DNA of 64,000 bases from a virus. The notes beneath the pieces were generated by a model that saw only the letters and a program-made list of their open reading frames with translations, did not search any database and had not been told where the DNA came from. A program made the position numbers and the translations under genes. Position 1 is the stretch's first letter, and the number at the start of each line of letters is the position of its first letter. Of the stretch, positions 36,802 to 63,827 are shown piece after piece. The stretch is from positions 36,421-100,420 of the IMG/VR virus record IMGVR_UViG_3300037091_000060. The stretch is one strand, 5' to 3'.

Positions 36802-36859
36802 TTTTCTCTCCACGAAAAGAGTTGATTAAGGGAGCACGTTCGTGCGTACTCCCCTAATC
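36802..36859 (-). promoter_or_regulatory. kissing-loop leader, copy A
   Basis: Loop CACGAA of a 15-bp stem is complementary to loop UUCGUG of the CUCUU/GAGAG stem that holds the SD. Confidence 0.75.
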
Positions 36860-36862
36860 TGC

Positions 36863-36891
36863 ATCTTAACACAAGTTGCAACCTGTGTCAA
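36863..36891 (-). promoter_or_regulatory. sigma70-type promoter overlapping a palindrome after the capsid stop
   Basis: TTGACA-17 bp-TAAGAT; TTGACACAGGTTGCAACTTGTGTTAA is nearly self-complementary. Confidence 0.7.
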
Positions 36892-36900
36892 GAGGAAATT

Positions 36901-36992
36901 TTACTGAATTGCCGGAACTGAATCAATGAAGCGAATACGCTGGGTATTCACGCCAGTAGCAGGTGGCAACGTCACTGTTTGATGGAATTTGT
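36901..36992 (-). CDS. major capsid protein exon 2
   Basis: After splicing reads (Y)KFHQTVTLPPATGVNTQRIRFIDSVPAIQ*, in frame with exon 1. Confidence 0.85.
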
Positions 36993-37232
36993 CCTATGTG
37001 TTACATTACTTTTCAGTAATGGGTTGGTCATTTCTGCCAACCACTCATGGTTTGATTCCCATGAGAGCAGACTATCGCATCGCCTTTCGGCGTTCTCTCG
37101 CTTAGTCGTTCACGGTGCCTTTCGGCTTCCGCCTTGTTCCCGTCTCAGGGTTCAAGTCAATCAGAGAGAATTCTCACTCGTACTACGTTACTGAGTGACC
37201 CCGCTCTTAAGCTGCTAGCTTAAGAGATGTTG
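36993..37232 (-). mobile_element. group I intron (240 nt, no ORF) in major capsid gene
   Basis: Exon ends in U and intron ends in G; P7 strands GACUA...UAGUC (R: GAACGACUAAG, S: GAUGCGAUAGUC); P3 UUCUCUC/GAGAGAA; GAAA tetraloops. Confidence 0.9.
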
Positions 37233-38166
37233 AGGAACACCATCCACCGATTGTTGAGACGGGGTCAAAGCTGGAAGCAGGAGCATCGGTCACAACTCTG
37301 CAATCGATGGTCTTCCAATCGCCCTCGTCCAAGTCAGTGTCGCCCGGAACCTGCAACCATACACCGATCATCGCGTAATTTCCGAACACATAAGTTCTGT
37401 ATCCGATCTTACCCGTGCCGAGGTAGTTGGCCGTCGTGGTTACGAACGGGGTCTGCATGAAGCCTATGTTCGTGCCCGGTAGGACGATGACCTTATTCTG
37501 GTCGCTGCCCGCCATTGCGTCGAACTTCTCCATGTTCTCGTACTTCCACAAGTCAACGATGCTGTTGTTCACAGTCGTTGCGTTGTAGATGTCGCCCAAC
37601 ACGTTCGGGCTGACTGCGCCCAAGAACATGCCACGCTTGCAAGGCAATACGTTCTTTGAAACAAGCTGCTGCTTCAATTCACGGATTGTGCCTAGGTCTA
37701 GCGTGTACGGAGATGCTAGCAACGTGTTCTGGTTGACCTGTGAGTCTACGCCAGATGCGCTGTCAGCAACTGCGCTGTACAACTCGCTGATGGACTGCCC
37801 AGCTTGGTAGCCGAGTTCCACTGCGCTGTTGCCCACCAACTCATCGATTGCGGCTGCGATTGCAAACGAACTGAAGTTGGCGTAGTTGTTCCACTCACCA
37901 ATCTGGGCGGGTGAAGACAACTGAGTGATGACTTCCGGGTTTCCCACGGTGCCGTCAGCACTCTGTACAATGTCGCCCGTGAGCGTGTTGTACTGGAAAA
38001 ACGTACGGTTTACGCCCATGTGAAGACCTTGTACACGTCGTTCTGCTGCTCCAACGAATGCGTTGGTGTTGCCCTTAAGGTTCGGAATCAATTCCTTATC
38101 GAAAATGATTGCCTGTGCCGTTAGGACGTTTGATACGTTTGACCCCGAAGGGTTTGGACCGCTCAT
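37233..38166 (-). CDS. major capsid protein exon 1 (spliced product 341 aa)
   Basis: Follows the scaffold gene; HK97-fold/N4 gp56-like pattern; ends DPVSTIGGWCS. Confidence 0.85.
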
Positions 38167-38211
38167 GGTGTTGCCATAGTCTGGGTCTCGGCGCGAACGC
38201 CGGGAAGATTG

Positions 38212-39504
38212 TTACTTGACAGGGATGCCGTAAGACGCAAGCTGCTTAACGAACTGAGGGTCGTTCTTCAGCTTTGCCTTCATTACCTTCGGGTCCATGT
38301 CTCGAACTGTCTTCAAAAATTCCTTTCTCGCGAGTGCTGGGTCTGGTAGCCCCGGGCGTTGTGCGCTTAATGAACCCGGTGCTATACTCCCACCTACTCC
38401 CGGACGACGGGCCGCTGGTTGCGCATTGTGCGCGGCGGCAGACGTCGGAGCCGTTGCTTCAACCACAGGAGTGACTACTGCCTGTGGAGGGGCTTGTGTT
38501 TCTAGTGCTGGCACTGTTGCTGCCGTTTCCGCTACTACCGGGATTGCCGGGGTCACGGGCGTTGCTACAGCGGCTGGTGCAACCGGATTAGCGGCTACAA
38601 CAGCGGGTACGGTTGCCGAAGGTTCTACCTTGGCAAGTTTGTTTCCCTGTTCCTTAAGGTCTTGGAATGCGGCCTCAAGGTTGTCCAGAGTAAATTCTAG
38701 GTTGTGGTCTCGGAAGTACTCGTCGATAGCTACCGAGTTAGCTGTGCACGGAACATAGTCGTGCAAGTGACGGCGCATGAATTCGTTGGAGATCGCGCGC
38801 CCGTTTTCTTGTTGTATCTTGGCGCGAAGTTTATCTTCGCGTTCCTTATACGAGGTCTCGATCACCTCGTGAATAACATCGGTGACCTTAGCCGTGTCCT
38901 TCGATTCTAGAGCGATGCGCGCGGCTTCCGCGATCTCTTCTGGCGTCAAGAGAGTCTTCTCTTTGAAGGTCAACTTCTGTTTCTTTAGACGGTGAAATGC
39001 GCGTGTCGCATTCTCGTGCGCGTCGCGCTTCTTGATCGCCAACTCCGGGAGCGTACGTGCCTCCAAGTGAGTCGGGCGTCCGATGGGTGTTCCGTCTTCG
39101 TCGCGAACCTGATACTCTTCGACGTAGCGTGTGGCCTTGCCGCTGGCGTCGCGAGTGATCGTGACCCCTGCACCCTTCCACTCTGCGTCTTCCTCTTCGT
39201 AGGACTTAGCAACAGGAACTGCTTGTGTTGGCACAACCTCAATGGCTTGTGCTGGCACGGCTGCCATCTCGGTCGCCTGTGCTGCGAGTTCTTCTGTCGA
39301 CGGGGGGACGACGCGATTTAATTGCGCGTCTAACTCCTCTTCCTTCTGTTTTGCTTCTAACATCAGCGCGCTAATGCGCGTGGCAACGCCGCTTCCGCGC
39401 GTTCCCATCAACTTCTGCATATCAGCAGATGTCTCTGGATTTTTGATAGCTAGTAGAATAGACTTCAAGTCCATCTTCAGAACTTGTTCAAGAGTTATTG
39501 ACAT
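38212..39504 (-). CDS. putative capsid scaffolding protein
   Basis: Charged helical N-terminus and A/P-rich linker; immediately upstream of the capsid gene. Confidence 0.6.
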   Translation of the reverse strand: MSITLEQVLKMDLKSILLAIKNPETSADMQKLMGTRGSGVATRISALMLEAKQKEEELDAQLNRVVPPSTEELAAQATEMAAVPAQAIEVVPTQAVPVAKSYEEEDAEWKGAGVTITRDASGKATRYVEEYQVRDEDGTPIGRPTHLEARTLPELAIKKRDAHENATRAFHRLKKQKLTFKEKTLLTPEEIAEAARIALESKDTAKVTDVIHEVIETSYKEREDKLRAKIQQENGRAISNEFMRRHLHDYVPCTANSVAIDEYFRDHNLEFTLDNLEAAFQDLKEQGNKLAKVEPSATVPAVVAANPVAPAAVATPVTPAIPVVAETAATVPALETQAPPQAVVTPVVEATAPTSAAAHNAQPAARRPGVGGSIAPGSLSAQRPGLPDPALARKEFLKTVRDMDPKVMKAKLKNDPQFVKQLASYGIPVK

Positions 39505-39516
39505 GTGGCATCCTTA

Positions 39517-39885
39517 TTAATTCTGTTTCGGTTCCTTTGCAGGAGATTCGATTGGCATGCGAAAACGCGCGGGCGGTTCGAAAACAGCCGTTGAACTTTC
39601 GCGCTGCTGTGCTTCTAGTACGGCGTTGCGTTGGTGCAACTTCACCGAGTCAAGTACCTCGGCTGAAAACTTGTTCATAGCGTGTGCGGTGGTTTGGAGA
39701 CCTGCAAGCACTTCGCTGTAGCGTTCCTGTGTCGGCTTCAATTTGATGACTTCCTGCGTCGCGGTGCGGCAGGCCTCGGCCATCAGCTTCACGAGAATTT
39801 TCCAACCCGGTTGATTCACGAGTTGCGCCAGTGCCAATCTCTCTTCGAAGGGCAGTCCGTCGCCTAATAGTTTACGATCTGACAT
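39517..39885 (-). CDS. hypothetical protein (portal-scaffold interval)
   Basis: GGAGAGG SD before MSDRKL; PGWKIL motif. Confidence 0.6.
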   Translation of the reverse strand: MSDRKLLGDGLPFEERLALAQLVNQPGWKILVKLMAEACRTATQEVIKLKPTQERYSEVLAGLQTTAHAMNKFSAEVLDSVKLHQRNAVLEAQQRESSTAVFEPPARFRMPIESPAKEPKQN

Positions 39886-40342
39886 TGGGTCCTCTCCAGA
39901 AGGCTGCACTGCCGCCGCGTTCTGACGATGACGGGCGATTGGTGGACGACGCTAACAGATTCTTTGCGGTGAGCCAGTTCTCATCCTTGGGACCACGACT
40001 CACGAATCCGCAGTTCAACAGGCACCAGATTTTAACCGTGCCATCGGAGAACGTGTGCATCGCCATATTATAATCTTTGAAGACACCTTGGACGCTGGTG
40101 CCGCCCTTTAAATGCTTGCAGAACGGATTGGGCGGGTCTGGATTTCTCGGTACGAGCTTGAACCCTTTGTAGCTCTCGCGACTTCTAAACTCCCGAAGGA
40201 ACTCGTCCGCTAATCGGACTTGTTCGGCTTGCGCGGCCTTGCGCGCGTCTTGTTCGAGTTGCTGTACGAGCGGCGCGAACTTCCCGTTCACAAATGTGAG
40301 TATGTGAAGCCAGAGGTTCCACATCCAGAGTTTAATTTTCAT
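39872..40342 (-). CDS. hypothetical Zn-finger protein
   Basis: CKHLKGG..HTFSD..CLLNC; paralog of 35067..35618. Confidence 0.6.
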   Translation of the reverse strand: MKIKLWMWNLWLHILTFVNGKFAPLVQQLEQDARKAAQAEQVRLADEFLREFRSRESYKGFKLVPRNPDPPNPFCKHLKGGTSVQGVFKDYNMAMHTFSDGTVKIWCLLNCGFVSRGPKDENWLTAKNLLASSTNRPSSSERGGSAAFWRGPNVRS

Positions 40343-40399
40343 TGTATTGTTCCTTTCCCTTTCAGGTATTGTGGTAGGGGCGTTTCCGCCCCCACTGAA

Positions 40400-44727: not shown

Positions 44728-44744
44728 GGCGTACTCCTATTGGT

Positions 44745-45005: not shown

Positions 45006-45014
45006 GTTCTCCTC

Positions 45015-45485: not shown

Positions 45486-45497
45486 GGTGTGTCTCCG

Positions 45498-46205: not shown

Positions 46206-46448
46206 TTAAACCTGTGGAGGTGCGCCTGCGGCTGGTGGTGCGCCCGCGCCCGGTGCCACTGGCTCCGGCTCGCCCGGATTCGGTGCCGAAGTGTGGTCCA
46301 TCATGTGGTCCATCATCGCATCGTGATCTGCTGCCGCGCCCTTGACGTCCTTATGAGGGCCGTCTTCGTGAACGTGGTGAACAGTGTGACTTCCATCTCG
46401 GTGGTGCTCTATGTGCGAGTGAGTGAACTTGTGGTGTTTCTTAGCCAT
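46206..46448 (-). CDS. His-rich small protein
   Basis: HHKFTHSHIEHHRDGSHTVHHVH; GGAG SD. Confidence 0.6.
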   Translation of the reverse strand: MAKKHHKFTHSHIEHHRDGSHTVHHVHEDGPHKDVKGAAADHDAMMDHMMDHTSAPNPGEPEPVAPGAGAPPAAGAPPQV

Positions 46449-46863
46449 TGAAAACTCCGTGCTTCTTCAAATAATCTATAGCTCTTTCTAGAACAACAAT
46501 CTTATCTTTTGCATTTCCTAAAACAAGATTACAAAATCTGCAAAGCAGTTCTCGACTCTTCCCTGTTACGTGGTCGTGGTCTAAATGCGGAGTCAACAAC
46601 GGCTCTGAACAAATAGCACAACGCCCGCTCTGCGCTATTAGCATCTCGTCGAATTTCTGTTGCGTAACCCCAAACAGCCGCTGATATTTTCTGATTATAT
46701 CTGGTTTCTGGCTATCGTGATATCGTCGTCTGTGTCCAGCGTTAACTCTATCTTTGTTCTTTCTGTCTGAACGAAGTTGAATTTCTTTACATCGCTCTGG
46801 ATGACGCTCGCGATATCGACTCTGCGCTTCTCGGCGTTGCTGTAATACTCTTTCCGTTCTCAT
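46441..46863 (-). CDS. endonuclease VII-like HNH protein
   Basis: QSGRCAIC..HLDHDHVTGKSRELLCRFCNLVLG. Confidence 0.9.
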   Translation of the reverse strand: MRTERVLQQRREAQSRYRERHPERCKEIQLRSDRKNKDRVNAGHRRRYHDSQKPDIIRKYQRLFGVTQQKFDEMLIAQSGRCAICSEPLLTPHLDHDHVTGKSRELLCRFCNLVLGNAKDKIVVLERAIDYLKKHGVFNG

Positions 46864-46939
46864 TTTGTTCTCCTTTAAAGAACGACAAAGAGGGTGTTAA
46901 AGGCACCCTCCAAGTCTAGCCCCGGGAGCAACCCCGAGG
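46864..46939 (-). promoter_or_regulatory. kissing-loop leader, copy B
   Basis: GAGGGUG-CCUUUAA-CACCCUC and GUUCU-UUAAAGG-AGAAC; extra 5' hairpin. Confidence 0.8.
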
Positions 46940-46945
46940 AATCTT

Positions 46946-47851
46946 TTAACTCATTAAACTATCGTGTGTAGTGCTCTCATTCAATAAAGCCGCTGCGTAA
47001 TAGCTGCCAGAGGGACGCTTGTAAACTCCGACAACGCCGCCCGGGCGAACCTTAATCGCGTTGTGGTCCTGATGAAACAAGTGACTCACTTGGTGAATCG
47101 TTGAACTGTGGGCGAAGACAATCGATGGGCGGCCTGTCTTTTCGCCCTCTGCAATTGCCATCTTAATCTCTGGGTTTGTTCGCTCGCGGAAATCGTTGAT
47201 GCGCTCCCCGCCCGGAATTTTCTCGTCTGGGTACTTCTGGTAGTGGATAATTTCTTCCATGTTCTTGTCGGTCTTTTTCTGGCCGGAGAACTTGCCCACA
47301 TTCAGCGCGTCGAAATTCTTAACGACTTTCGCCTTGCCGGGACCCAATGTTATATCGGCTGTCTCGCGCGTGCGGTCTTTACTGCTGCGAAAAGCCGCGC
47401 CGAGTTGTTGGCCGCCGAGGTGGTTCGCTAGGAACCCGCGAACGTCCAAAGCCTGCTGACGGCCTACGTTATCGAGAGGGATTTCCATCTGGCCGCGAAA
47501 GCGTTTTTCTTTATTGAACTCTGTCTGGCCGTGACGGACGAAGAGCGCGACAAGTTTCGGGGCTGGATTGATCTGAGTCAATTTATTCTCCGGCTCTACG
47601 AATTCGCAACACTGGTGCACCGCGTCGGTGATGATCGCCAAACCCCTCTCATCGTGCTGAACTTCGGGGTCGGCCATCATGACTTCTTGTCGGCAACGGT
47701 TCTTATCCTTATTGATATACTCGCAGTTCGCACAGTTGTAAGGTCCGTCGCTGGCGAAGCCTGCTAACTTTGTACTCTTGGGCCAGATCGGGCCGACCTT
47801 GGATATTAGATCATTTAGTCCACGAATAATTGTAGGCCAATTCTTAGCCAT
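46946..47851 (-). CDS. histidine phosphatase family protein with N-terminal Cys-rich domain
   Basis: VRHGQT, GGE and FAH motifs; N-terminal CANC..C..CC. Confidence 0.85.
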   Translation of the reverse strand: MAKNWPTIIRGLNDLISKVGPIWPKSTKLAGFASDGPYNCANCEYINKDKNRCRQEVMMADPEVQHDERGLAIITDAVHQCCEFVEPENKLTQINPAPKLVALFVRHGQTEFNKEKRFRGQMEIPLDNVGRQQALDVRGFLANHLGGQQLGAAFRSSKDRTRETADITLGPGKAKVVKNFDALNVGKFSGQKKTDKNMEEIIHYQKYPDEKIPGGERINDFRERTNPEIKMAIAEGEKTGRPSIVFAHSSTIHQVSHLFHQDHNAIKVRPGGVVGVYKRPSGSYYAAALLNESTTHDSLMS

Positions 47852-48044: not shown

Positions 48045-48383
48045 CTACCTCTCAAGATATTTGAGAATCTTTTTCTGTAATCTCTCAAACCACCCAAGTC
48101 GAGTGTTGCACTGTTGACAAAGAACGCCGCGATAATCCTGATTAAAAACATTCGCTGGCCCTTTATGGTCGAGGCACATCTTCTTGGGACGCTTACCACA
48201 AATCTCACAACATTTACGACGCTTTCTTTTTGCTTGGGCGGCAGTCAAGCCATAGCGATGTTTAGCATCCCGATCATCGCGAATGCTTTTAGATTGTTCT
48301 GGGTTGCGCTTTCTCCATCCCGCGCTTATCTCGGGATGATTTCTACGCCACGCATTTTGCTTTTCTTTGGTATCGTACGGCAT
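48045..48383 (-). CDS. endonuclease VII-like HNH protein
   Basis: CEICG..CLDH..RGVLCQQCNTRLG. Confidence 0.88.
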   Translation of the reverse strand: MPYDTKEKQNAWRRNHPEISAGWRKRNPEQSKSIRDDRDAKHRYGLTAAQAKRKRRKCCEICGKRPKKMCLDHKGPANVFNQDYRGVLCQQCNTRLGWFERLQKKILKYLER

Positions 48384-48460
48384 ATACTCTCCTAAACAAA
48401 GTGCGACCCGAGGCGTGGTTTAGGCACGCCCCGAATCTGCGCCCCGGTAATGAGCCGGGG
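48384..48460 (-). promoter_or_regulatory. kissing-loop leader, copy C
   Basis: GGGGCGUG-CCUAAAC-CACGCCUC and ACUUU-GUUUAGG-AGAGU; extra 5' hairpin. Confidence 0.8.
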
Positions 48461-56148: not shown

Positions 56149-56915
56149 CAGACCTCAATCCCTGCAACATTAACTCGGTAGTTTCCAGTTGCGCCCGCCG
56201 GAGCGCTGCTTACGTTAAGATTCAAAACGTTGTTTATAGTGGACGACAAGATTCCGTTTCCGAGATCAATCCAGCCATCTGAAAGATTTAAATTCCCGCC
56301 AAATAATACATCCGTTGCCGTCGCTACTGCCGGAAGAAGAACTTCATATGTTCCTATCGTTATGCCAACTGCTGCGTCTTGAAAAGACAAAGTGACTACC
56401 GATGCCGCCGTAGCTGTTAGATTGCACCCAGTAATCTGAAATCGCATTAACTGAAATTTCTTACCGGCAGTGGGCGTCCAAACGGCGCTGTTACCAGAAG
56501 TCCCGGCAGTAACAGATACTGTTTTATAAATAGTAGGCGATACTTGCGTTGCAGGAAAGTTCGATACAGCTACCGTCCCAGAAACTGACTGCGTTGCTGG
56601 AAAGTTACTTACTGCAACTGTCGATAGCGGTGTCAGCGTAGCAACTTGTGCAGCCGTTAAAATAACGGGCAGACTTGCTGCCGCTGGTGCCTGACCTAAC
56701 GAGATCGGCGCGCCACCAACCTGAGCGAGATTCTCGCTGACTACAGTGCTGCCGCCGCCAACTGCGACGTTGACAAGGAGGTTTCCCTGACTGTCACATT
56801 GCAGAGAGCAGCCTTGCTGGTCTTGAGGTGCAGGAGCGGTCGCGTTATAAACGGCACCAGTTACGATAGGTGTTATCGATGCTGGGCTTAACAACGGGCC
56901 TCTCGGTAATGCCAT
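56148..56915 (-). CDS. virion/tail fibre-like protein
   Basis: N-terminus paralogous to 53100..54170; VAVSNFPATQ twice. Confidence 0.6.
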   Translation of the reverse strand: MALPRGPLLSPASITPIVTGAVYNATAPAPQDQQGCSLQCDSQGNLLVNVAVGGGSTVVSENLAQVGGAPISLGQAPAAASLPVILTAAQVATLTPLSTVAVSNFPATQSVSGTVAVSNFPATQVSPTIYKTVSVTAGTSGNSAVWTPTAGKKFQLMRFQITGCNLTATAASVVTLSFQDAAVGITIGTYEVLLPAVATATDVLFGGNLNLSDGWIDLGNGILSSTINNVLNLNVSSAPAGATGNYRVNVAGIEV

Positions 56916-56924
56916 CAAATCCTC

Positions 56925-57293
56925 TTAGCGGTTTCCCCGCTGTCTGGCTCTCCACACCGCGTGGTCGCTTTGAGCGGACGGGTCGGGTGGTATCAGGCCT
57001 GAGTTCTCGTGATGAGATTTTCTAAGTGACGCTGCCATCTCTAAAAAATCTGGAGCGGTGGCGCGGGAAGCTATTTGCTCCCGTCTCTCTTCTACGCTTA
57101 AAAATGTGGGCTGCTCTTCCACGTCGGTTCTCGGCCCAAGATTTCTGCCACGGACTAGCTCGACGAGCGGCGCGACCTCTGGAGTCTTGGGAGCGGGCAC
57201 TGATTGGGTCTTAATAAAAACATACCACACTGATGCCGATGAAATTAAAACGGCTGCGGCAGCAAATGCTTCCGCGAAAATTAGTGCGCTCAT
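56925..57293 (-). CDS. membrane-anchored hypothetical protein
   Basis: N-terminal TM segment. Confidence 0.55.
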   Translation of the reverse strand: MSALIFAEAFAAAAVLISSASVWYVFIKTQSVPAPKTPEVAPLVELVRGRNLGPRTDVEEQPTFLSVEERREQIASRATAPDFLEMAASLRKSHHENSGLIPPDPSAQSDHAVWRARQRGNR

Positions 57294-57520
57294 CGCGCTC
57301 GGCTTACTGGGGCCTTGGATGTCGTTGCGAACGAAAAGCCCGCCTGCTTAAATGCGGCGGCAACTTCGCGGCGAAGAGAACTCAAATCAAGTGTCTGCGC
57401 GGCGAGTGCGGCTTCTAGAACGGAGATTCGGTCTTTTAGTCCTTGGTGTTCTGAGAGCACCTTGTTGACGGCGCTGATTTCTAAAAGGCTATTGGGCTGC
57501 TGCCTGTTGTCGGTGAACAT
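57290..57520 (-). CDS. small coiled-coil protein
   Basis: AAGGAG SD directly after the last tRNA. Confidence 0.6.
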   Translation of the reverse strand: MFTDNRQQPNSLLEISAVNKVLSEHQGLKDRISVLEAALAAQTLDLSSLRREVAAAFKQAGFSFATTSKAPVSRAR

Positions 57521-57537
57521 TGGACTCCTTCAAAGAT

Positions 57538-57611
57538 TGGTTCCGGCGCGTGGACTCGAACCACGATAAACAGATTCAGAATCTGCTGGCCTACCGTTGG
57601 CCGACATCGGA
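57538..57611 (-). tRNA. tRNA-Gln(CTG)
   Basis: Cloverleaf; loop TTCTGAA; encoded CCA. Confidence 0.9.
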
Positions 57612-57620
57612 ACTGAAAAT

Positions 57621-57695
57621 TGGTTGGGCAAGAACGATTCGAACGTTCATCGAGCGGATTCAAAGTCCGACGTGTTACCGTTACACTATCGCCCA
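57621..57695 (-). tRNA. tRNA-Gln(TTG)
   Basis: Loop CTTTGAA; CCA. Confidence 0.88.
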
Positions 57696-57703
57696 ACAGA
57701 AAA

Positions 57704-57777
57704 TGGTCCTAGCTAATCGAGTTGAGCGATTTCTACTTGTGTTTCAAACAAGGGTGCAACCCCTACACCAAACTAGG
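57704..57777 (-). tRNA. tRNA-Phe(GAA), atypical T-loop
   Basis: Loop TTGAAAC; T-loop CTCAACT; CCA. Confidence 0.65.
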
Positions 57778-57784
57778 ATTAAGA

Positions 57785-57869
57785 TGGAGGAAGAATGATG
57801 AGTCGAACACCACACCTTTCGGTGCCCTCCGGGTTCAAACCGGATTGCGAGCCACTCGCAGAATCTTCC
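57785..57869 (-). tRNA. tRNA-Ser(TGA)
   Basis: Loop TTTGAAC; long variable arm; CCA. Confidence 0.8.
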
Positions 57870-57941
57870 ATAAATTGTGGTCGTGAGCACCCTACTCTTT
57901 ATGGGGCTGCTCTTCGTTCTGCCGACCAGCAGATTTAAAAT

Positions 57942-58033
57942 TGGCGGACGATGTAGGATTTGAACCCACGATACCCATTTAAGAGTATGGCGCGTTAGCA
58001 CCGCGCTGCGATCAGCCTCTCTGCCAATCGTCC
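57942..58033 (-). tRNA. tRNA-Ser(GCT)
   Basis: Loop GTGCTAA; long variable arm; G73; CCA. Confidence 0.88.
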
Positions 58034-58039
58034 GTAAAA

Positions 58040-58114
58040 TGGCATGAGAGGATGGACTCGAACCACCGTAGTCGGGTTTGGAGTCCGACGTCCTAGCCGC
58101 TGAACGACTCTCAT
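58040..58114 (-). tRNA. tRNA-Trp(CCA)
   Basis: Loop CTCCAAA; G73; CCA. Confidence 0.9.
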
Positions 58115-58212
58115 GTAGAAAATGAATTCTGGGGAGCGCGCCTAACGTCTCCAATCTTCCGTTCGCTTGGAACGGGTGCTCGTATCGACGACTTCGAACT
58201 GCCAGAAAAAAT

Positions 58213-58300
58213 TGGTGGATAGTGAACGACTCGAACGTTCGAAGCCCACAAGGGGCATCTGGTTTACAGCCAGAGGCAATTGCCGCTATGCGAACCATCC
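58213..58300 (-). tRNA. tRNA-Tyr(GTA)
   Basis: Loop CTGTAAA; long variable arm; CCA. Confidence 0.9.
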
Positions 58301-58384
58301 ACAGAAAATTGGAGCCGGAAGTTATGGTTACGACCCAAGGCTTCATCCCCTCATGAAGGAACTTATCCCCTCCGACATAGAAAT

Positions 58385-58458
58385 TGGAGCGGCGTATGAG
58401 AGTCGAACTCATACCTGAACCTTGGCAAGGTTCCACGCTACCGCTACGCCAACACCGC
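58385..58458 (-). tRNA. tRNA-Gly(GCC)
   Basis: Loop TTGCCAA; U73; CCA. Confidence 0.92.
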
Positions 58459-58466
58459 TCAGAAAA

Positions 58467-58540
58467 TGGAGCACCGAAAAGGAATCGAACCTTTACGTCC
58501 GCTTTACGAAAGCGGCATCATGCCACTAGATCATCAGTGC
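58467..58540 (-). tRNA. tRNA-Thr(CGT)
   Basis: Loop TTCGTAA; CCA. Confidence 0.9.
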
Positions 58541-58546
58541 AAAAAT

Positions 58547-58621
58547 TGGAGCATCGACGTGGAATCGAACCACGGCGTTCGCATTACAGGTGCGACATCA
58601 TGACCACTAGATCATCAATGC
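58547..58621 (-). tRNA. tRNA-Thr(TGT)
   Basis: Loop CCTGTAA (C33); CCA. Confidence 0.85.
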
Positions 58622-58628
58622 TCAAAAC

Positions 58629-58702
58629 TGGAGCCAAGACGTGGAATCGAACCACGACCTAATCCTTACCAAGGATTCGTTCTGCCACTAGACTATCTAG
58701 GC
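58629..58702 (-). tRNA. tRNA-Thr(GGT)
   Basis: Loop TTGGTAA; CCA. Confidence 0.9.
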
Positions 58703-58710
58703 TCAAAAAT

Positions 58711-58787
58711 TGGAGCGGCGTATCGGATTCGAACCGATTCTCGGAGTTTGGAAAACTCATGTGCTAGCCGTTGAACACTAACACCGC
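58711..58787 (-). tRNA. tRNA-Gly(TCC)
   Basis: Loop TTTCCAA; U73; CCA. Confidence 0.9.
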
Positions 58788-58789
58788 GT

Positions 58790-58877
58790 TGGTTGCGCAG
58801 GTGGGAGTCGAACCCACGAGTCCCTTTCGGGATGAGGCTTATGAGACCTCTGACATCGGCCACTAGTCGACCGCGCA
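58790..58877 (-). tRNA. tRNA with CAT anticodon and long variable arm (identity uncertain)
   Basis: Loop CTCATAA; variable arm TCCC-GAAA-GGGA; CCA. Confidence 0.8.
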
Positions 58878-58885
58878 ATTGAAAT

Positions 58886-58959
58886 TGGTATCTAACCGTG
58901 GATTCGAACCACGATAACGCCCCTATCAAGGGCGAGTCCTACCGTTGGACGAGTCAGAT
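58886..58959 (-). tRNA. tRNA-Ile(GAT)
   Basis: Loop TTGATAG; CCA. Confidence 0.88.
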
Positions 58960-58961
58960 AT

Positions 58962-59036
58962 TGGTGGACGGTGGCGGATTCGGACCCCCACTTCATCGGT
59001 GCAAGCGACGCGTGCTCCCATTAACACTAACTGCCC
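58962..59036 (-). tRNA. tRNA-Ala(TGC)
   Basis: Loop CTTGCAC; G3:U70; CCA. Confidence 0.88.
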
Positions 59037-59046
59037 ACTGTAAAAT

Positions 59047-59120
59047 TGGTACCGCTACAGGGACTCAAACCCTGTCTACGAGGTTGAAAGCCTCGTTGCC
59101 TATCCATAGCAGATAGCGGC
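59047..59120 (-). tRNA. tRNA-Glu(TTC)
   Basis: Loop CTTTCAA; CCA. Confidence 0.85.
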
Positions 59121-59130
59121 ATTGAAAATT

Positions 59131-59204
59131 TGGCACGGCTGCGGAGAATCGAACTCCGGCCACGCGCCTGAGAAGCGCATGTTCTGCCACTAAACTACAA
59201 CCGC
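59131..59204 (-). tRNA. tRNA-Glu(CTC)
   Basis: Loop TTCTCAG; CCA. Confidence 0.85.
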
Positions 59205-59259
59205 ACTGAAAATTGGCGGGTCCCACCGAACCGAAGTCCGTATTTTCCCCATTGAAAAT

Positions 59260-59335
59260 TGGTAGGCAATAAGAGAATCGAACTCTTCCGCTCTGGGTGT
59301 AGGCCAGATGTATACGACCAGTTTACTAATCGCCT
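59260..59335 (-). tRNA. tRNA-Val(TAC)
   Basis: Loop CCTACAC (C33); CCA. Confidence 0.85.
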
Positions 59336-59744
59336 ATCTATCCAATCGAGACTCCCTACAATAGTGCGCTAATCCTGTCCAGCGACCCCTATCTACTGTA
59401 AAGTTTTCAATTGGTTCAAACTTTTTACATCCAACGCACCACGACATACCGTCTGGTGCAATCTTACGCTTGGCGACGCCGCCATGAAACGTGTGCGGCT
59501 TATTACATCTCATGTGAGAGAACGCCACATTATCTAAATCCCAAAACAAGTCAGCGGAGAGACCTTCCCACGGCTTGACGTGCTCAATGCTTAATTCGTC
59601 GATGTTCTCTATTTTCTCGCTGCATCGAACACAGACATTGTCGTCGTACTTCGCAAGTTGACGAAACAAGACCATCTTACGAAGCCTGCTGCACGCTGCG
59701 CCGTGAGACATACCTAAAGTTTCTACTGCCCGTTTGTTTGACAT
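59334..59744 (-). CDS. HNH endonuclease inserted in the tRNA array
   Basis: CVRC..SIEHVKPW..NVAFSHMRCN; C-terminal WCVGC. Confidence 0.85.
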   Translation of the reverse strand: MSNKRAVETLGMSHGAACSRLRKMVLFRQLAKYDDNVCVRCSEKIENIDELSIEHVKPWEGLSADLFWDLDNVAFSHMRCNKPHTFHGGVAKRKIAPDGMSWCVGCKKFEPIENFTVDRGRWTGLAHYCRESRLDR

Positions 59745-59785
59745 AATCGTTGGTCTCCTTGACCGTTGATTGATGTGCAGAAAAT

Positions 59786-59861
59786 TGGTGGACCCAGAAG
59801 GAATCGAACCTTCATCCCTCGCTTTAAGAGAGCGGTACTCTAGCCATTGAGCTACGAGTCC
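59786..59861 (-). tRNA. tRNA-Lys(CTT)
   Basis: Loop CTCTTAA; CCA. Confidence 0.92.
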
Positions 59862-59869
59862 ATAAAACT

Positions 59870-59944
59870 TGGTGCGCCGCCCGAGGCTCGAACTCGGACA
59901 TTGGGCTTAAAAGGCCCCATTGCTGCCGCTCGCATCCGCAGCGC
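59870..59944 (-). tRNA. tRNA-Lys(TTT), atypical D arm
   Basis: Loop CTTTTAA; CCA. Confidence 0.78.
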
Positions 59945-59992
59945 ATATTTAATAAAAGTGCCATATTTACACATGCTGTAAATATTGAATCT

Positions 59993-60300
59993 TGGTCGCG
60001 CGATAGCCCGGTTTCTGTCTAGGACGAACATTCCTCTAAGCCTGCTACCCGACTCTCATCGCGCTCAACAAGCGCTCAAGTCCTATTTGCAGTTGCACCC
60101 GTGTGGAGTACCTTCGCTCGAATGGCGAGTAGTTTGCTTATCAGGCAAACAACTCAGCACGAAGCCTTACCCGTACGCTTGCGCGTCCCGCAACTTCCAC
60201 GGCACGATGTTGAGATGTGACCGGAACTTCCTCGATATGTGATCGCATATATTTCTTGCGAATTATATACTCTCGCATATCGCGTTCGTCTACGCTACCA
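59993..60300 (-). ncRNA. rnpB: RNase P RNA (bacterial type A-like)
   Basis: GAGGAAGUUCCGG / ACAGAAACCGGGCUA (P4); P2 GACGAAC/GUUCGUC; P6 CUCAACA/UGUUGAG; GCAA-CUGC-AAAUAG...GGGUA-GCAG (P15 with L15 GGU). Confidence 0.88.
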
Positions 60301-60374
60301 AAATTTTGCCCGATACTATGTTGGGTCGGAACCGCCCACTCGCTGTGTTATAGTCTTGCGGCATGACTCAAACT

Positions 60375-60448
60375 TGGAGCATGAAGAGTGAATCGAACAC
60401 TCGATGCCTCTTTTGCAGAGAGGTAGCTTACCACTTGCCGATTCATGC
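60375..60448 (-). tRNA. tRNA-Cys(GCA)
   Basis: Loop CTGCAAA; U73; CCA. Confidence 0.9.
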
Positions 60449-60534
60449 AAACTCAGTAGACACCCTACCGCTGTCATCGCAACCCTGTCTTTATGCCTTT
60501 ATGGACAGGGCGGCTATTTCGATAGGTACAAGAT

Positions 60535-60627
60535 TGGTGCGCCACACAGGATTCGGAATTCGGACCTGTACGCCTGTTAGGGCAGAGGGTTTTAAATCCT
60601 CCGTGTCTGCCATTTCACCAGCAGCGC
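60535..60627 (-). tRNA. tRNA-Leu(TAA) with duplicated T-loop
   Basis: Loop TTTAAAA; T-loop TCCGAAT twice; CCA. Confidence 0.75.
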
Positions 60628-60633
60628 GAAACT

Positions 60634-60876
60634 TTAATCGTCTACGATGTGTTCTTCACACGAGGTGTGATTCTTTGCTCGTGGTTTGTTGCAATCTACG
60701 CGAAAACAGGTGGTCGGTTCTACATACTCTTTAACCACAATTTCTTGGTTTTCGTAAACATAGCCTGCCGCTACCGGAACAGTCTCGCCGGAATAAATCT
60801 TTTTAGGGAAGTCTGAGCCAACCCTGACTTCGATGATACCCGGACCCAGATTCACAACTAGCACGCGTGTAGTCAT
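60634..60876 (-). CDS. hypothetical protein in the tRNA array
   Basis: AAGGA SD; C-terminal CxxxxC..CxxH. Confidence 0.6.
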   Translation of the reverse strand: MTTRVLVVNLGPGIIEVRVGSDFPKKIYSGETVPVAAGYVYENQEIVVKEYVEPTTCFRVDCNKPRAKNHTSCEEHIVDD

Positions 60877-60892
60877 TGTCTTCCTTTCGAAT

Positions 60893-60981
60893 TGGTTGTC
60901 GACGATGGTGTCGAACCATCCTGCAAGCCTGATCTAGGCCAAGGGTTTATAAGACCCTGCCGCGAGCCGTCGCAGTCGACA
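60893..60981 (-). tRNA. tRNA with TAT anticodon, long variable arm and minimal D arm (nominal Ile)
   Basis: Loop CTTATAA; variable arm GCCT-AGATC-AGGC; D arm GCGA-CGGC-TCGC; CCA. Confidence 0.72.
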
Positions 60982-60990
60982 ATTGAAACT

Positions 60991-61077
60991 TGGTCGCCAA
61001 CCAGAGACTCGAACTCTGACGCCCTTTCGGGCACCGGGTTTTGAATCCGGCGTGTCTGCCAATTCCACCAGCAGGCG
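60991..61077 (-). tRNA. tRNA-Leu(CAA)
   Basis: Loop TTCAAAA; long variable arm; CCA. Confidence 0.9.
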
Positions 61078-61084
61078 ATAAACT

Positions 61085-61159
61085 TGGAGGACCGCTTCGG
61101 ACTTGCACCGAAATTTCGTGGTTCGTAGCCACGCGACGTGTCTATTGGTCTAACAGTCC
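61085..61159 (-). tRNA. tRNA-Arg(ACG)
   Basis: Loop CTACGAA; T-loop TGCAAGT; CCA. Confidence 0.82.
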
Positions 61160-61164
61160 AAAAC

Positions 61165-61239
61165 TGGAGCACCCACTCGGATTCCAACCGAGGTCATCAC
61201 GGTAGAAACGTGAGGTCCTGTGCGCTGAACGACAGGTGC
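61165..61239 (-). tRNA. tRNA-Arg(TCT)
   Basis: Loop TTTCTAC; T-loop TTGGAAT; CCA. Confidence 0.82.
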
Positions 61240-61246
61240 ATAAAAT

Positions 61247-61331
61247 TGGTAGCCCGCAGAGGACTCGAACCTCTACGCCCGAAGGCGTCCGTTTCTAAGA
61301 CGGACATGTCTGCCAGTTCCATCAGCAGGCC
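61247..61331 (-). tRNA. tRNA-Leu(TAG)
   Basis: Loop CTTAGAA; long variable arm; CCA. Confidence 0.9.
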
Positions 61332-61412
61332 ACAGAAAAATTGGGCGGCATTTATCAGCGCGCGCCGTCCATCGCGCTTCGGGTTCCAATCAAGGAACCG
61401 AAGCCATTGCGC

Positions 61413-61925
61413 CTAACCAGCTAGCGACGCCACGTCACGGGAGCTACCCGGAAATGTTATAGGCTTCTGTTGTACAACCTCTTTCATCCATGTCAGGTAA
61501 TTCATTACCGCTTCGTCTGACATTTTAGAAAACAAACCTTCGATACTGTTACAATCCCTATGAATGAACCCTCTCGGTTCACCTGTCTCGTGGTTGTGGT
61601 CAAAACAACTACCATTCGAACCTTGGAGACTCAACACGCCACCACAAGCGACACAAAACCCTTTCTGTGATTCCCAGATTTTTAACATCTCATCTGGCGT
61701 TATTGTCGGAGACGAGTACCCTTTAGACTTTGCCAACGACCTGAGTCTTGGGAGTAAAACTCTAAATCTTCCCACAAGACCACTTGGGCCTTCGCCCATC
61801 CTACGTGCTCTCACGCGCCGACACTCGGACGTTACCGAACATTTCTGACAAATAAAATACGTTCTTCCGTGTCCGTTTTTCTTCGGCTTATTCCTTTCAT
61901 TGCCACAAATAGAGCATAACTTCAT
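61413..61925 (-). CDS. endonuclease VII-like HNH protein in the tRNA array
   Basis: QKGFCVAC..FDHNHETGEPRGFIHRDCN. Confidence 0.85.
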   Translation of the reverse strand: MKLCSICGNERNKPKKNGHGRTYFICQKCSVTSECRRVRARRMGEGPSGLVGRFRVLLPRLRSLAKSKGYSSPTITPDEMLKIWESQKGFCVACGGVLSLQGSNGSCFDHNHETGEPRGFIHRDCNSIEGLFSKMSDEAVMNYLTWMKEVVQQKPITFPGSSRDVASLAG

Positions 61926-61973
61926 TTCACCCTCCGCAATAGAGTGTCGGGGGTGATTGCGGCACCCCCAACC
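61926..61973 (-). promoter_or_regulatory. kissing-loop leader, copy D
   Basis: GGGGGUG-CCGCAAU-CACCCCC and CACUCU-AUUGCGG-AGGGUG. Confidence 0.8.
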
Positions 61974-61988
61974 GATGTACGTACAAGA

Positions 61989-62063
61989 TGGCTGACCCAG
62001 TAGGATTCGAACCTACACCCTCTTCATTAACAGTGAAGTGCCCTGCCGTTAGACCACAGGTCA
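61989..62063 (-). tRNA. tRNA-Asn(GTT)
   Basis: Loop CTGTTAA; G73; CCA. Confidence 0.92.
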
Positions 62064-62072
62064 GTAGAAACT

Positions 62073-62146
62073 TGGTCGAGAATGGGTGAATCGAACACCC
62101 GCCTCATGTATCCGAAACATGGAGACTACCACTATCAGAACTCTCG
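62073..62146 (-). tRNA. tRNA-Pro(CGG)
   Basis: Loop TTCGGAT; C1:G72, A73; CCA. Confidence 0.85.
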
Positions 62147-62154
62147 ATAAAAAT

Positions 62155-62228
62155 TGGCGCGGGTACCGGGAATCGAACCCGGCCTACCACAGTGACAGTG
62201 TGGCGTCATGCCGACAGACCCTACCTGC
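62155..62228 (-). tRNA. tRNA-Asp(GTC)
   Basis: Loop CTGTCAC; G73; CCA. Confidence 0.88.
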
Positions 62229-62238
62229 GTCGTAAACT

Positions 62239-62312
62239 TGGTCGAAAGTGCTGGAGTCGAACCAACGCCACATGCTTCCAAAGCACGCATGCTACCGTAA
62301 CACTTACTCTCG
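62239..62312 (-). tRNA. tRNA-Pro(TGG)
   Basis: Loop TTTGGAA; C1:G72; CCA. Confidence 0.88.
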
Positions 62313-62319
62313 ACAAAAA

Positions 62320-62395
62320 TGTTGAGTACGGTGGGACTCGAACCCACATCGGCGCGCGTTATGAGCGCGCTGCTTTACCATTAAGCTACGTCCTC
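62320..62395 (-). tRNA. tRNA-Met or Ile2 (CAT); 3' end ACA rather than CCA
   Basis: Loop CTCATAA; standard cloverleaf. Confidence 0.85.
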
Positions 62396-62484
62396 GACAA
62401 TGACATGTGCAACTGTGCGGGAGCTACCCGCGTCTGCACTGTGCCCGCGTAAGCAGGCGAGCCATCGCTTTAAAGAATAAACTT

Positions 62485-62667
62485 TTACTTCGCTGCTGGT
62501 GCCGCCTTTTTCGCTGCCTTCAAAATGAACAGGTTACGAATCGTGATAGCTGCTGAACCAGCCGCCATCATTTCGAACGGTACCGCGCCGAGGTAGTTAT
62601 AAAATCCGTGCTGCGCGAGAATCGAACCTATGACTCCGGTTCCGATCAACTTCACGCCCGCGTCCAA
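62485..62667 (-). CDS. possible small membrane protein
   Basis: Two hydrophobic stretches and a KAAKKAAPAAK tail, but no good start or SD. Confidence 0.35.
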   Translation of the reverse strand: MDAGVKLIGTGVIGSILAQHGFYNYLGAVPFEMMAAGSAAITIRNLFILKAAKKAAPAAK

Positions 62668-62716
62668 GAACGTGCCGAACGCTCTCGCGCCGGGGCGGTC
62701 TTCGTAAATTAAAATT

Positions 62717-62791
62717 TGGGGTGGGCACCCAGTATCGATCTGGGGCCGAGAGGTTCACAACCTCCCGTGCTACCATTACACCATGCTCACC
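62717..62791 (-). tRNA. tRNA-His(GTG)
   Basis: Loop TTGTGAA; encoded G-1:C73; CCA. Confidence 0.88.
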
Positions 62792-62802
62792 GTCGTAAAC
62801 CT

Positions 62803-62832
62803 ACTCTACCACAGGAAGCCGGATGCCGTCAA
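62803..62832 (-). promoter_or_regulatory. promoter of the tRNA/RNA island
   Basis: TTGACG-18 bp-TAGAGT with an extended TG, 11 bp upstream of tRNA-His. Confidence 0.6.
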
Positions 62833-62838
62833 GCGAAA

Positions 62839-63024
62839 TTATAGAAGCGACTTTACGCGGGTAACAACCTCGCGGTAATCGGCGATGATGCAAACTGACG
62901 CTTCCGATTCGATCTTTGCGATCTCAGCCTTGATAGCAGCTAGCTTGAAGTTGGCCGGATGATGGACGCGACCTGCGCCAAAACCTATGGCGAGCGCGAA
63001 CGCGAATAAAATCATGAGTCCCAT
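62839..63024 (-). CDS. small membrane-anchored protein
   Basis: N-terminal TM segment; GGAG SD. Confidence 0.55.
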   Translation of the reverse strand: MGLMILFAFALAIGFGAGRVHHPANFKLAAIKAEIAKIESEASVCIIADYREVVTRVKSLL

Positions 63025-63257
63025 TAGCTCTCCCCTTTCGTGGCCTTCGCCATCTCGACCAGCAGCAGTTGGAACTGGCGGTCGTATAATTTTTCTAACT
63101 CTGGAAACTTCTCAAACGTGTCTCGAATCACTTCCGTCGCGGTCACTAACCTTTCAAGTTGGTCGATAGCTGGGTCGATTATTTCCGTTTTCGTTTCTGT
63201 AACCGGAGAACTCACGTCATCCGGAAGAATCATCCAAGGGACGCTCATTATGAACAC
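63024..63257 (-). CDS. hypothetical protein
   Basis: Coupled to the next ORF. Confidence 0.5.
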   Translation of the reverse strand: MFIMSVPWMILPDDVSSPVTETKTEIIDPAIDQLERLVTATEVIRDTFEKFPELEKLYDRQFQLLLVEMAKATKGES

Positions 63258-63264
63258 CTGCGTG

Positions 63265-63762
63265 TTAGTTGTTCAGATAGAGTTTATTTTTATATCTTCT
63301 TTCTCTCTTCTGTCTCTCGTGCTGTGAAGCCCAAACTGCATTAGCGTCCCGCTCAATCGTTGACTTGTGAGGGCAGACACCGTCGTTGCACTGCCGCCCC
63401 ATGTTACAGTTGTGACACAAAACGCGGTATTTGCCTTGAGGGTAACCATGCTTTCTTAATTGCAAATAAAAATTATAACCGCCATCGTTATTGCGACGCA
63501 AAGGGTCTTCCTTAGCATTACCAAAGATGTGATCTATTGCTAAGAAATAAATCTCGGTTTCGCCACAGCAAGAACAACAGCCCCCATACGCGTCTATTAC
63601 CTTCTGTCTGAGTTTTCGCTGGCAATCTTTGTGATACCGTCTCCGACAGATTTTACAATGATAATCCTTTCCTTGTTTGCCGTTAATGTTCGTACCAAAA
63701 TCATCTAGGCTCTTATCGGTGCCGCAACGGCCACAGCGTTTGGTTTCAGTAGATGCTATCAT
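63265..63762 (-). CDS. HNH endonuclease
   Basis: CSCCGE..LAIDHI..VLCHNCN; N-terminal CGRC..CKIC. Confidence 0.88.
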   Translation of the reverse strand: MIASTETKRCGRCGTDKSLDDFGTNINGKQGKDYHCKICRRRYHKDCQRKLRQKVIDAYGGCCSCCGETEIYFLAIDHIFGNAKEDPLRRNNDGGYNFYLQLRKHGYPQGKYRVLCHNCNMGRQCNDGVCPHKSTIERDANAVWASQHERQKRERRYKNKLYLNN

Positions 63763-63827
63763 CACTCCTCCACAAAGGAGTCACGGGGTGTTGTGGCACC
63801 CCGCTAATTCGGCTCATGACTTCCGAA
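63763..63827 (-). promoter_or_regulatory. kissing-loop leader, copy E
   Basis: CGGGGUG-CCACAA-CACCCCG and ACUCCU-UUGUGG-AGGAGU; extra 5' hairpin. Confidence 0.8.

Follow-up and report, generated by a model that had tools for sequence, protein, structure and literature searches.

The question raised by this locus is why five different nuclease genes of one phage should each be preceded by the same arrangement of two RNA hairpins, the loops of which are complementary to each other. The genes lie in the right-hand 64 kb of the 100,420-bp IMG/VR virus record IMGVR_UViG_3300037091_000060, estimated to be 99% complete; this whole stretch of 64,000 nucleotides is termed the window. Among the selfish genes of large phages homing endonucleases are the most common, and to our knowledge the protection of the carrier from them is understood in just a handful of T-even cases, in which every gene has a hairpin of its own. 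We think it probable that the element described here is a portable cis-acting 5′ leader RNA that restrains the initiation of translation of free-standing homing-endonuclease genes. Coordinates are window positions unless they are labelled 'genome' or are given with the name of an L- or G-record; G000 is the phage under study.

The architecture of the leaders

The five leaders were located by direct reading of the sequence. All are on the - strand, directly 5′ of the gene starts at 36801, 46863, 48383, 61925 and 63762. In each, a GC-rich hairpin X (core 6-9 bp, extendable to 8-15 bp; loop 6-7 nt) is followed after a linker of 0-9 nt by a hairpin Y of 5-6 bp. In all five copies the loop of Y is the exact reverse complement of the loop of X, and the start codon lies 1-4 nt 3′ of Y. 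The X loop is closed by GTG..CAC in leaders B to E, and by ACG..CGT in leader A. The Shine-Dalgarno (SD) sequence GGAG lies partly in the 3′ end of the Y loop and partly in the 3′ strand of Y. The element is ~45-60 nt in length, or ~85 nt if an optional 5′ hairpin is included.

36802-36859, - strand, leader A: X 36824-36859, loop CACGAA 36839-36844; Y 36806-36821, loop TTCGTG 36811-36816
46864-46911, - strand, leader B: X 46889-46911, loop CCTTTAA 46897-46903; Y 46867-46883, loop TTAAAGG 46872-46878
48384-48437, - strand, leader C: X 48405-48437, loop CCTAAAC 48418-48424; Y 48386-48402, loop GTTTAGG 48391-48397
61926-61972, - strand, leader D: X 61946-61972, loop CCGCAAT 61956-61962; Y 61928-61946, loop ATTGCGG 61934-61940
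63763-63804, - strand, leader E: X 63783-63804, loop CCACAA 63791-63796; Y 63764-63781, loop TTGTGG 63770-63775

The positions, the loop pairs, the Y stems and the GTG..CAC closure of four copies had been given in a first-pass annotation of the window, and are base-exact. Both hairpins are recovered by RNAfold in all five leaders, with z scores from -1.7 to -6.4; the value is -4.2 for leader E and -6.4 for leader A (minimum free energy -29.6), in which the SD sequence GGAGAG runs across the Y loop and 3′ stem. In leader D the two hairpins abut or share 1 nt.

Recovery of the leaders by structure and by pattern

A covariance model (R1) was built that contains the two stems only, with no rule for loop-loop pairing. 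In the whole 100,420-bp genome it found exactly five leaders, with E values of 1e-6 (A), 2e-11 (B), 1e-11 (C), 2e-13 (D) and 4e-9 (E), the next match having E 2.4. A blind script that looked for adjacent hairpins with complementary loops returned the same five, plus a few weak 6-mers. By the model the layout is confined to these five genes within this genome; the first-pass annotation had likewise not found it before other genes.

Further copies were sought in IMG/VR using a pattern for hairpin X alone (GGGGTGCC, 4-5 N, CACCCC), which gave 123 matches. In 18/123 the exact complement of the X loop was present within 45 nt downstream, where fewer than one would be expected, and 17/18 of these had the layout Y 5′ strand, loop ending in GG, AG(A/G)G and ATG. 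Application of R1 to the records carrying those copies gave 21 further copies from outside the training set, several with quite different X stems. The loops are fully complementary in 21/21 of these model-only copies, one having a single G·U pair. In total 44 distinct copies were parsed automatically, and a 45th (L143 9551), with a Y stem of 2 bp, was read by eye.

The leader is present in seventeen IMG/VR records, often in several copies, the richest records having 6, 5, 5, 4, 4 and 4. The carriers include complete genomes of 104, 111 and 68 kb, and a 42-kb genome estimated to be 89% complete. R1 was also run over the complete genomes of those cultured phages whose EndoVII genes come closest (Pseudomonas Ep020, Salmonella PKM.Hi.22.6, Klebsiella KpV2811, Synechococcus S-SRM01 and Escherichia Baskent_phicoli_1); these five gave only terminator-plus-ribosome-binding-site look-alikes with loops that are not complementary, and a culturable carrier was not found among them.

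Covariation of the loops and stems

The loops of X and Y are complementary in all 45 copies, and the 44 parsed copies contain 36 different X loops. When the X loop of one copy is matched to the Y loops of other copies the pairing falls to 57%, and is never fully complementary. In an alignment of 32 sequences (A4) the loop-loop helix is 98.7% paired, and changes on both sides are seen in 6/7 of its pairs; the corresponding numbers are 7/8 pairs for the X stem and 3/5 for the Y stem. The observed values were reached in 0/500 shuffles, and partners that were slid out of register pair to ~50%. Watson-Crick pairing between the loops is therefore upheld by compensatory change, a property shared with kissing-loop complexes, and the loop-loop covariation of a conserved RNA element that the first-pass annotation had proposed is borne out by the statistics of the 44 copies and the counts from the alignment.

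The mismatches are informative on the nature of the molecule that is under selection. G·U exceeds A·C by 25:1 in X and by 13:4 in Y, and by 38:5 overall, so the structure is selected in the sense-strand RNA and not in the DNA. The X loop is 6-7 nt in length with the consensus C-C-N-N-N-A-W, in which positions 3-5 are free to vary. In 35/43 copies 7-9 nt separate the end of the Y loop from the ATG; the SD sequence is therefore formed by the GG at the end of the loop together with the AG(A/G)G that follows. In the five copies and in 45/45 relatives the GGAG is predicted to lie partly in the loop-loop helix, on its Y side, and partly in the 3′ strand of Y. We also looked by eye for a YUNR/U-turn motif in the Y loop; ~70% fit UNR against 50% by chance, and this reading was dropped as unconvincing.

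The nuclease genes behind the leaders

The genes downstream of the five leaders encode small nucleases that are mutually only 24-40% identical.

36388-36801, - strand, nuclease gene A: 137 aa, Pfam Endonuclease_7 3.6e-17; directly 3′ of the putative major capsid gene
46441-46863, - strand, nuclease gene B: 140 aa, Pfam Endonuclease_7 2.1e-21
48045-48383, - strand, nuclease gene C: 112 aa, Pfam Endonuclease_7 1.2e-7
61413-61925, - strand, nuclease gene D: 170 aa, Pfam Endonuclease_7 4.7e-10; within the tRNA cluster
63265-63762, - strand, nuclease gene E: 165 aa, HNH-type; PHROG 2255 (phrog_2255) HNH endonuclease 6.9e-16, with no above-threshold match in Pfam

The open reading frames (ORFs) behind ~45 leaders were typed using Pfam and PHROGs. 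About 31 are of HNH/EndoVII type, four are GIY-YIG+NUMOD3 and one is T5orf172/MUG113. The remainder comprise part of a primase (L097), an unknown 247-aa protein and two ORFs of 49-51 aa, while three leaders have no ORF. The association of the leader is thus with free-standing nucleases of homing type, the folds of which are unrelated.

The sole clear non-nuclease is the 481-aa ORF at L097:2361-3862, in a complete 68-kb genome (record G002). It matches only positions 325-763 of the 772 of a DNA primase PHROG, i.e. the C-terminal two-thirds, and could be the 3′ half of a primase gene that has been split. Intact leaders followed by an ORF of 49-51 aa, or by none, are found at L090:4912-5058, L138:3184-3336, L143:6455-6506, L156:6595-6644 and L231:1577-1630. 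These tiny or missing ORFs are probably decayed nuclease genes, and the leader seems to outlast the decay of its gene.

The two-hairpin leader is absent from at least seven other genes of HNH/EndoVII type in this genome, six of them on the + strand arm and one on the - strand.

Genome 4218-4439, before the window: leaderless EndoVII/HNH-type gene
Genome 8163-8369, before the window: leaderless EndoVII/HNH-type gene
Genome 17759-17914, before the window: leaderless EndoVII/HNH-type gene
Genome 21972-22145, before the window: leaderless EndoVII/HNH-type gene
Genome 28461-28628, before the window: leaderless EndoVII/HNH-type gene
9572-9766, + strand: leaderless EndoVII/HNH-type gene
59334-59744, - strand: leaderless EndoVII/HNH-type gene, with a small SD hairpin only

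Among the homologues of gene B in IMG/VR the leader is present at just 1/80 loci (L003), and it is therefore not a general feature of EndoVII genes. It is the nucleases placed within heavily transcribed regions that would be expected to need insulation.

Possible conformations and their probable role in translation

Hairpin X is very stable, with a mean folding free energy of -15 kcal/mol (range -9.5 to -23). Hairpin Y alone has a mean of -2.7 kcal/mol (range -8.7 to +2.4), which by calculation would be too weak for repression, and the loop-loop duplex is calculated to contribute ~-7 kcal/mol. The SD sequence would be covered by two separate anti-SD pieces, i.e. the CC-containing loop of X and the pyrimidine 5′ strand of Y.

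Can the Y stem and the loop-loop helix form at the same time? In a kissing complex that retains both stems these are stacked at opposite ends of the loop-loop helix, and the length of the whole stack, ~50-75 Å, would part the 3′ end of X from the 5′ end of Y. Over the whole set of copies the linker between X and Y is 0-14 nt, and is often 0-3 nt. Taking ideal A-form parameters and 7 Å per linker step, and ignoring bending, we obtain a rough estimate that a stretched linker would span a coaxial stack of X, loop-loop helix and Y in 12/44 copies with full stems, or in 26/44 if the stems are trimmed to 7 and 4 bp; copies D and E are out of reach in either case. On this basis it looks as though, for steric reasons, a cis kissing complex proper could not form with its two stems intact in 18-32 of the 44 copies. 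The two loops are separated by 12-26 nt, so that in every copy at least 5 nt are left for crossing an X stem of 7 bp. At the level of sequence an H-type pseudoknot, comprising X and the loop-loop helix with the 5′ strand of Y crossing, is thus feasible in every copy, and so is the form with X and Y but no loop pairing.

Since the linker is so often very short, we infer that in many copies the Y stem and the loop-loop helix alternate rather than coexist. The weak Y stem would open, and its loop would be captured by the loop of X to form an H-type pseudoknot stacked upon X. In either state part of the SD sequence would always be paired. A nuclease gene carrying such a leader could settle 3′ of strongly transcribed phage genes, such as the capsid gene or the tRNA cluster, without being strongly translated.

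Other explanations were considered. The loops might pair in trans, giving a symmetric leader dimer in which the X loop of one molecule is bound to the Y loop of the other, so that expression is limited by dosage as mRNA accumulates; intermolecular loop-loop pairing of this kind is found in the pRNA of phi29. The loops are closed by stems and complementary over their full length with no spare nucleotide, which is the geometry of a bimolecular kissing complex, and by the same rough estimate the linker is too short for the cis stack in all but the 12/44 or 26/44 copies counted above. An antiparallel arrangement would place the feet of X and Y side by side, fitting linkers of 0-3 nt, and the linkerless copies with long Y stems (9 bp in L148, 8 bp in L117 and L215) retain perfect complementarity of the loops. 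A dimer would, however, require a high concentration of mRNA, while the cis pseudoknot with Y open is favoured entropically and meets no steric obstacle in any copy; we know of no precedent in an mRNA leader for loop pairing in trans, and regard this explanation as unlikely. The presence of two conserved and probably mutually exclusive structures would also suit a regulated switch or an activator, in which the pseudoknot is the ON state (as in IncI-alpha repZ) or the RNA responds to some factor. This could be temperature, Mg2+, a phage or host protein (such as a CsrA-like binder of GGA, or S1) or cleavage by an RNase in the linker; linkers are often AU-rich, and GGA lies at the border of the Y loop and stem. 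Yet the SD is partly paired in both states, and no conserved unpaired nucleotide hints at a site for ligand or protein, the core positions 3-5 of the loop being variable. With unrelated nucleases served by the same leader, autoregulation by the encoded protein is improbable, and we view a switch as a rather unlikely description of the element.

Hairpin X, which is so stable and which in copy A has the predicted start of the transcript at the foot of its 15-bp stem, could alternatively be a protective 5′ stem-loop or an RNase target acting on mRNA stability or processing and so insulating the transcript of the cassette, with the covering of the SD as a secondary matter. That fails to explain the complementarity of the X loop to the Y loop with its SD sequence, which holds for all 45 copies, and is very unlikely. 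Nor is X an intrinsic terminator, a candidate that was rejected as a T-run of four or more follows X in only 2/44 copies. Lastly, the motif is a set of inverted repeats, and EndoVII enzymes cut branched DNA, so that a role at the level of DNA might be imagined, either as a cruciform or as a site of recombination or of recognition by EndoVII-type nucleases. But the 38:5 ratio of G·T to A·C toward the sense strand is not expected from the symmetry of a DNA duplex, the same leader precedes GIY-YIG and T5orf172 genes, and the GGAG is consistently placed 7-9 nt before the ATG; we consider that a function in DNA is scarcely tenable.

A number of points weigh against a cis-acting leader that restrains translation. 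Repression is something that we infer from the structure. The first 17 relatives were chosen for the complementarity of their loops, so that the unbiased evidence is that of the 21 model-only matches and the count from the X-only pattern. At least seven HNH/EndoVII genes of this genome manage without the leader, which is not a general requirement of such nucleases. There is no visible means of relieving the repression, the promoter-like boxes lying upstream of X and not within the structure as they do in T4. Mutual exclusion of the Y stem and the loop-loop helix would leave the upkeep of both unexplained, and the suggested toggle between them derives from the rough estimate of reach in which bending is ignored.

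Despite these points, restraint of translation initiation by a portable leader acting in cis is the explanation that we favour. It is conceivable, and we put this forward tentatively, that the design is sterically frustrated, two covarying helices being unable in many copies to form together in cis. It would act either as a two-state 'double lock', the opening of one helix letting the other close over the SD, or as a concentration-sensing, self-dimerizing leader, and would serve as a portable translational insulator exchanged across unrelated homing-endonuclease families and many phage lineages.

Modules upstream of hairpin X

Three kinds of module recur 5′ of X, namely a sigma70-like promoter, a palindromic box and a hairpin termed P0. 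The first-pass annotation had noted a third 5′ hairpin in copies B, C and E, and reading of the sequence confirms it.

36863-36891, - strand, sigma70-like promoter of copy A: TTGACA, 17 nt with an inverted repeat, TAAGAT; assigned from a sequence match only
61976-61985, - strand, palindromic box TGTACGTACA of copy D: 3 nt upstream of X, just after tRNA-Asn
46920-46939, - strand, third 5′ hairpin P0 of copy B: CCTCGGGG / TCCCGGGG, loop TTGC
48442-48460, - strand, third 5′ hairpin P0 of copy C: CCCCGG / CCGGGG, loop CTCATTA
63806-63829, - strand, third 5′ hairpin P0 of copy E: AGTTCGG / CCGAATT, loop AAGTCATGAG

The putative promoter TTGACA-N17-TAAGAT, with its internal inverted repeat, is present at copy A and in L218, L117 and L238. 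The box is a perfect 10-bp palindrome TGTA(G/C)(C/G)TACA located 3-8 nt before X in ~12 copies including D, often just after the 3′ end of a tRNA. Examples at other loci are in L090, L147, L138, L215, L226 and L235, and the usual context is (A/G)TTTGTAGCTACAT. The box of copy D is the single occurrence in this genome, and it therefore belongs to the cassette rather than to the general promoters of the phage. Its sequence would suit a promoter, an operator or a signal for processing.

The stem of P0 is compensated among homologues in the relatives, being CCTCGG/CCGAGG, CCCCGG/CCGGGG, CTTCGG/CCGAAG or CCATAG/CTATGG, and the P0 loop of copy E is found also in L162 and L156. P0 together with a (T/C)AGA(C/T)T element was considered as a candidate sigma70 promoter, for which the match at -35 is poor. 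It had been proposed that the leader limits expression from read-through transcripts. This would not be its sole role, because copy A has a sigma70-like promoter of its own 5′ of X and copy D has the conserved palindromic box.

Gain, loss and exchange of the leaders

The source phage was detected in peat and soil metagenomes, and in no RNA run. No close relative was found in the GenBank phage collection by megablast of 3 kb or by tblastn of a 621-aa ORF; two collinear relatives, G001 and G017, have nucleotide identities of ~70-75%. At locus B there are 531 nt in G000 (46441-46971, comprising gene B, leader and P0) where G001 has an intergenic spacer of 43 nt. At locus C a soil-metagenome contig joins 47896 to 48466, bypassing gene C together with its leader and P0. 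At locus A, G001 has a homologous EndoVII gene of 41% identity and the X stem (GGGGAGT) is kept; the two loops have changed jointly, from CACGAA/TTCGTG in G000 to CCAAGAA/TTCTTGG in G001, and the upstream module has been exchanged, being the sigma70-like promoter in G000 and a P0 hairpin in G001. At locus D the leader and upstream box are 89.6% identical to those of G001, compared with ~72% for the backbone, and the ORF of G001 is only 49 aa.

These comparisons bear on the suggestion that the leader travels with its nuclease as a cassette. It holds in so far as leader and gene are present or absent as one unit at loci B and C. There is, however, no single cassette lineage: the leader is found before HNH/EndoVII, GIY-YIG+NUMOD3 and T5orf172 genes, and once before a primase, and it is thus a module shared by unrelated nuclease families. 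For the same reason the proposal that each RNA is a binding partner of its own nuclease is unlikely to be right, these families being structurally unrelated.

The first-pass annotation had also suggested that a private pair of loops in each copy prevents cross-talk. Identical loops occur in 1/60 pairs of copies within a genome and in 8/886 pairs between genomes, which gives no sign of avoidance and does not support the suggestion. The diversity of the loops is adequately explained by drift of the three unconstrained positions with compensation, or by turnover of cassettes.

Two observations were made at gene B. Its stop codon overlaps the start of the next gene at 46441-46448 (ATGGCTAA), so that the inserted cassette provides the translation start context of its downstream neighbour. 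In a minor-variant contig covering 46454-46952 (metagenome runs X2 and X4) leader B is kept, with 5 differences in 92 nt, while 279 nt of the 5′ half of the gene are exchanged for 291 other letters; here the leader is better conserved than the nuclease ORF.

The surrounding genome

The - strand arm contains the terminase, portal and putative capsid genes and a cluster of 33 tRNA genes, and all five leader-bearing genes are located there.

57538-62790, - strand: tRNA cluster, 33 genes
59786-60083: 'tmRNA' called by ARAGORN, overlapping tRNA-Lys
36993-37235, - strand: insert of ~240 nt within the putative major capsid gene

No match to tmRNA or RNase P RNA was obtained in the tRNA cluster with Rfam at the gathering threshold. 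The insert in the capsid gene is cleanly missing from G001, and has no intron match in Rfam at the gathering threshold. Nuclease gene A and its leader lie just 3′ of this insert-bearing gene, an arrangement that recalls 'collaborative homing', in which a free-standing nuclease is paired with an intron that has no ORF.

Comparison with known systems

A search of the whole window with Rfam 15 at gathering thresholds gave tRNAs only, and permissive scans of leaders A to D with their surroundings returned no more than noise below the thresholds. This accords with the failure of the first-pass annotation to match the element to a named RNA family. In leader B the stretch AAAGGAGAAC gives weak scores for CyVA-1 (RF02965; 19.0 bits, threshold 41.4) and freshwater-2 (RF02980; 15.7 bits, threshold 49.9), and neither family has matches in the other four leaders or in those of 15 related records. 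Both resemble the leader in being small motifs that are associated with phages or metagenomes and contain AAGGAGA, but their consensus structures are different. Full-text searches of the literature returned no account of homing endonucleases with a leader of loop-loop or pseudoknot type. The element is therefore a candidate for a new Rfam family, and a marker for the annotation of mobile nuclease cassettes in metagenomic phages.

As a shared, modular RNA device of ~50 nt the leader shows unusually clean covariation, with three free loop positions that are always compensated. It would provide a compact natural model for the control of ribosome access by a loop-loop interaction or pseudoknot, and the freedom of the loop code might allow its use in synthetic biology as a tunable, orthogonal translational 'lock'.

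The loop-loop interaction may be compared with the kissing complexes of ColE1 RNA I/RNA II and HIV TAR-TAR*, in which loops of 6-7 nt are fully paired. As in those complexes, whole loops of 6-7 nt are complementary with no unpaired residues, and the stems would abut the loop-loop helix. Those complexes are formed between separate molecules, whereas here both hairpins are on one strand and 0-14 nt apart, which by our rough estimate is too short for the coaxial complex in many copies.

Hairpin or pseudoknot translational operators are found in E. coli rpsO (S15), the T4 gene 32 leader and IncI-alpha repZ. The pseudoknot of gene 32 is mentioned in PMC10690425. In common with these operators, the loop of a hairpin pairs with a strand beside the ribosome binding site, and two-hairpin and pseudoknot forms may interconvert. 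They are single-gene operators that are bound by a specific protein or driven by translation of a leader peptide; in the present leader neither a leader ORF nor a site for a protein is apparent, and there is no constraint on the sequence that pairs.

The closest functional relatives are the RNA structures that sequester the ribosome binding site and restrict translation of the T-even homing endonucleases I-TevI, I-TevII, I-TevIII and segB, and of Aeh1 mobE (PMC2988022, PMC3014915). In both cases the SD sequence is taken up by an RNA structure that immediately precedes the homing-endonuclease gene of a phage, the genes lie within transcription units of the host phage, and the presumed role is to keep the nuclease scarce. 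The SD is predicted here to be paired in a stable structure directly upstream of the start, as in the T-even phages. The T-even structures are single, long, gene-specific hairpins, and a late promoter within the 5′ arm provides for their relief. In contrast, the present leader has two hairpins and a covarying loop-loop helix, and is common to unrelated nuclease families and many phages. Its anti-SD is not the 5′ arm of one continuous hairpin, but is made up of the X loop and the 5′ strand of Y. The promoter-like sequences, i.e. TTGACA-17 nt-TAAGAT in copy A and the palindromic box in copy D, are upstream of X rather than inside the structure, where the linker has only 0-14 nt, although phage-specific promoters are possible. 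In its probable function, as an RNA leader of homing endonucleases that sequesters the ribosome binding site, the element is thus of a known kind; in structure it is novel and uncatalogued, and it is widespread and modular.

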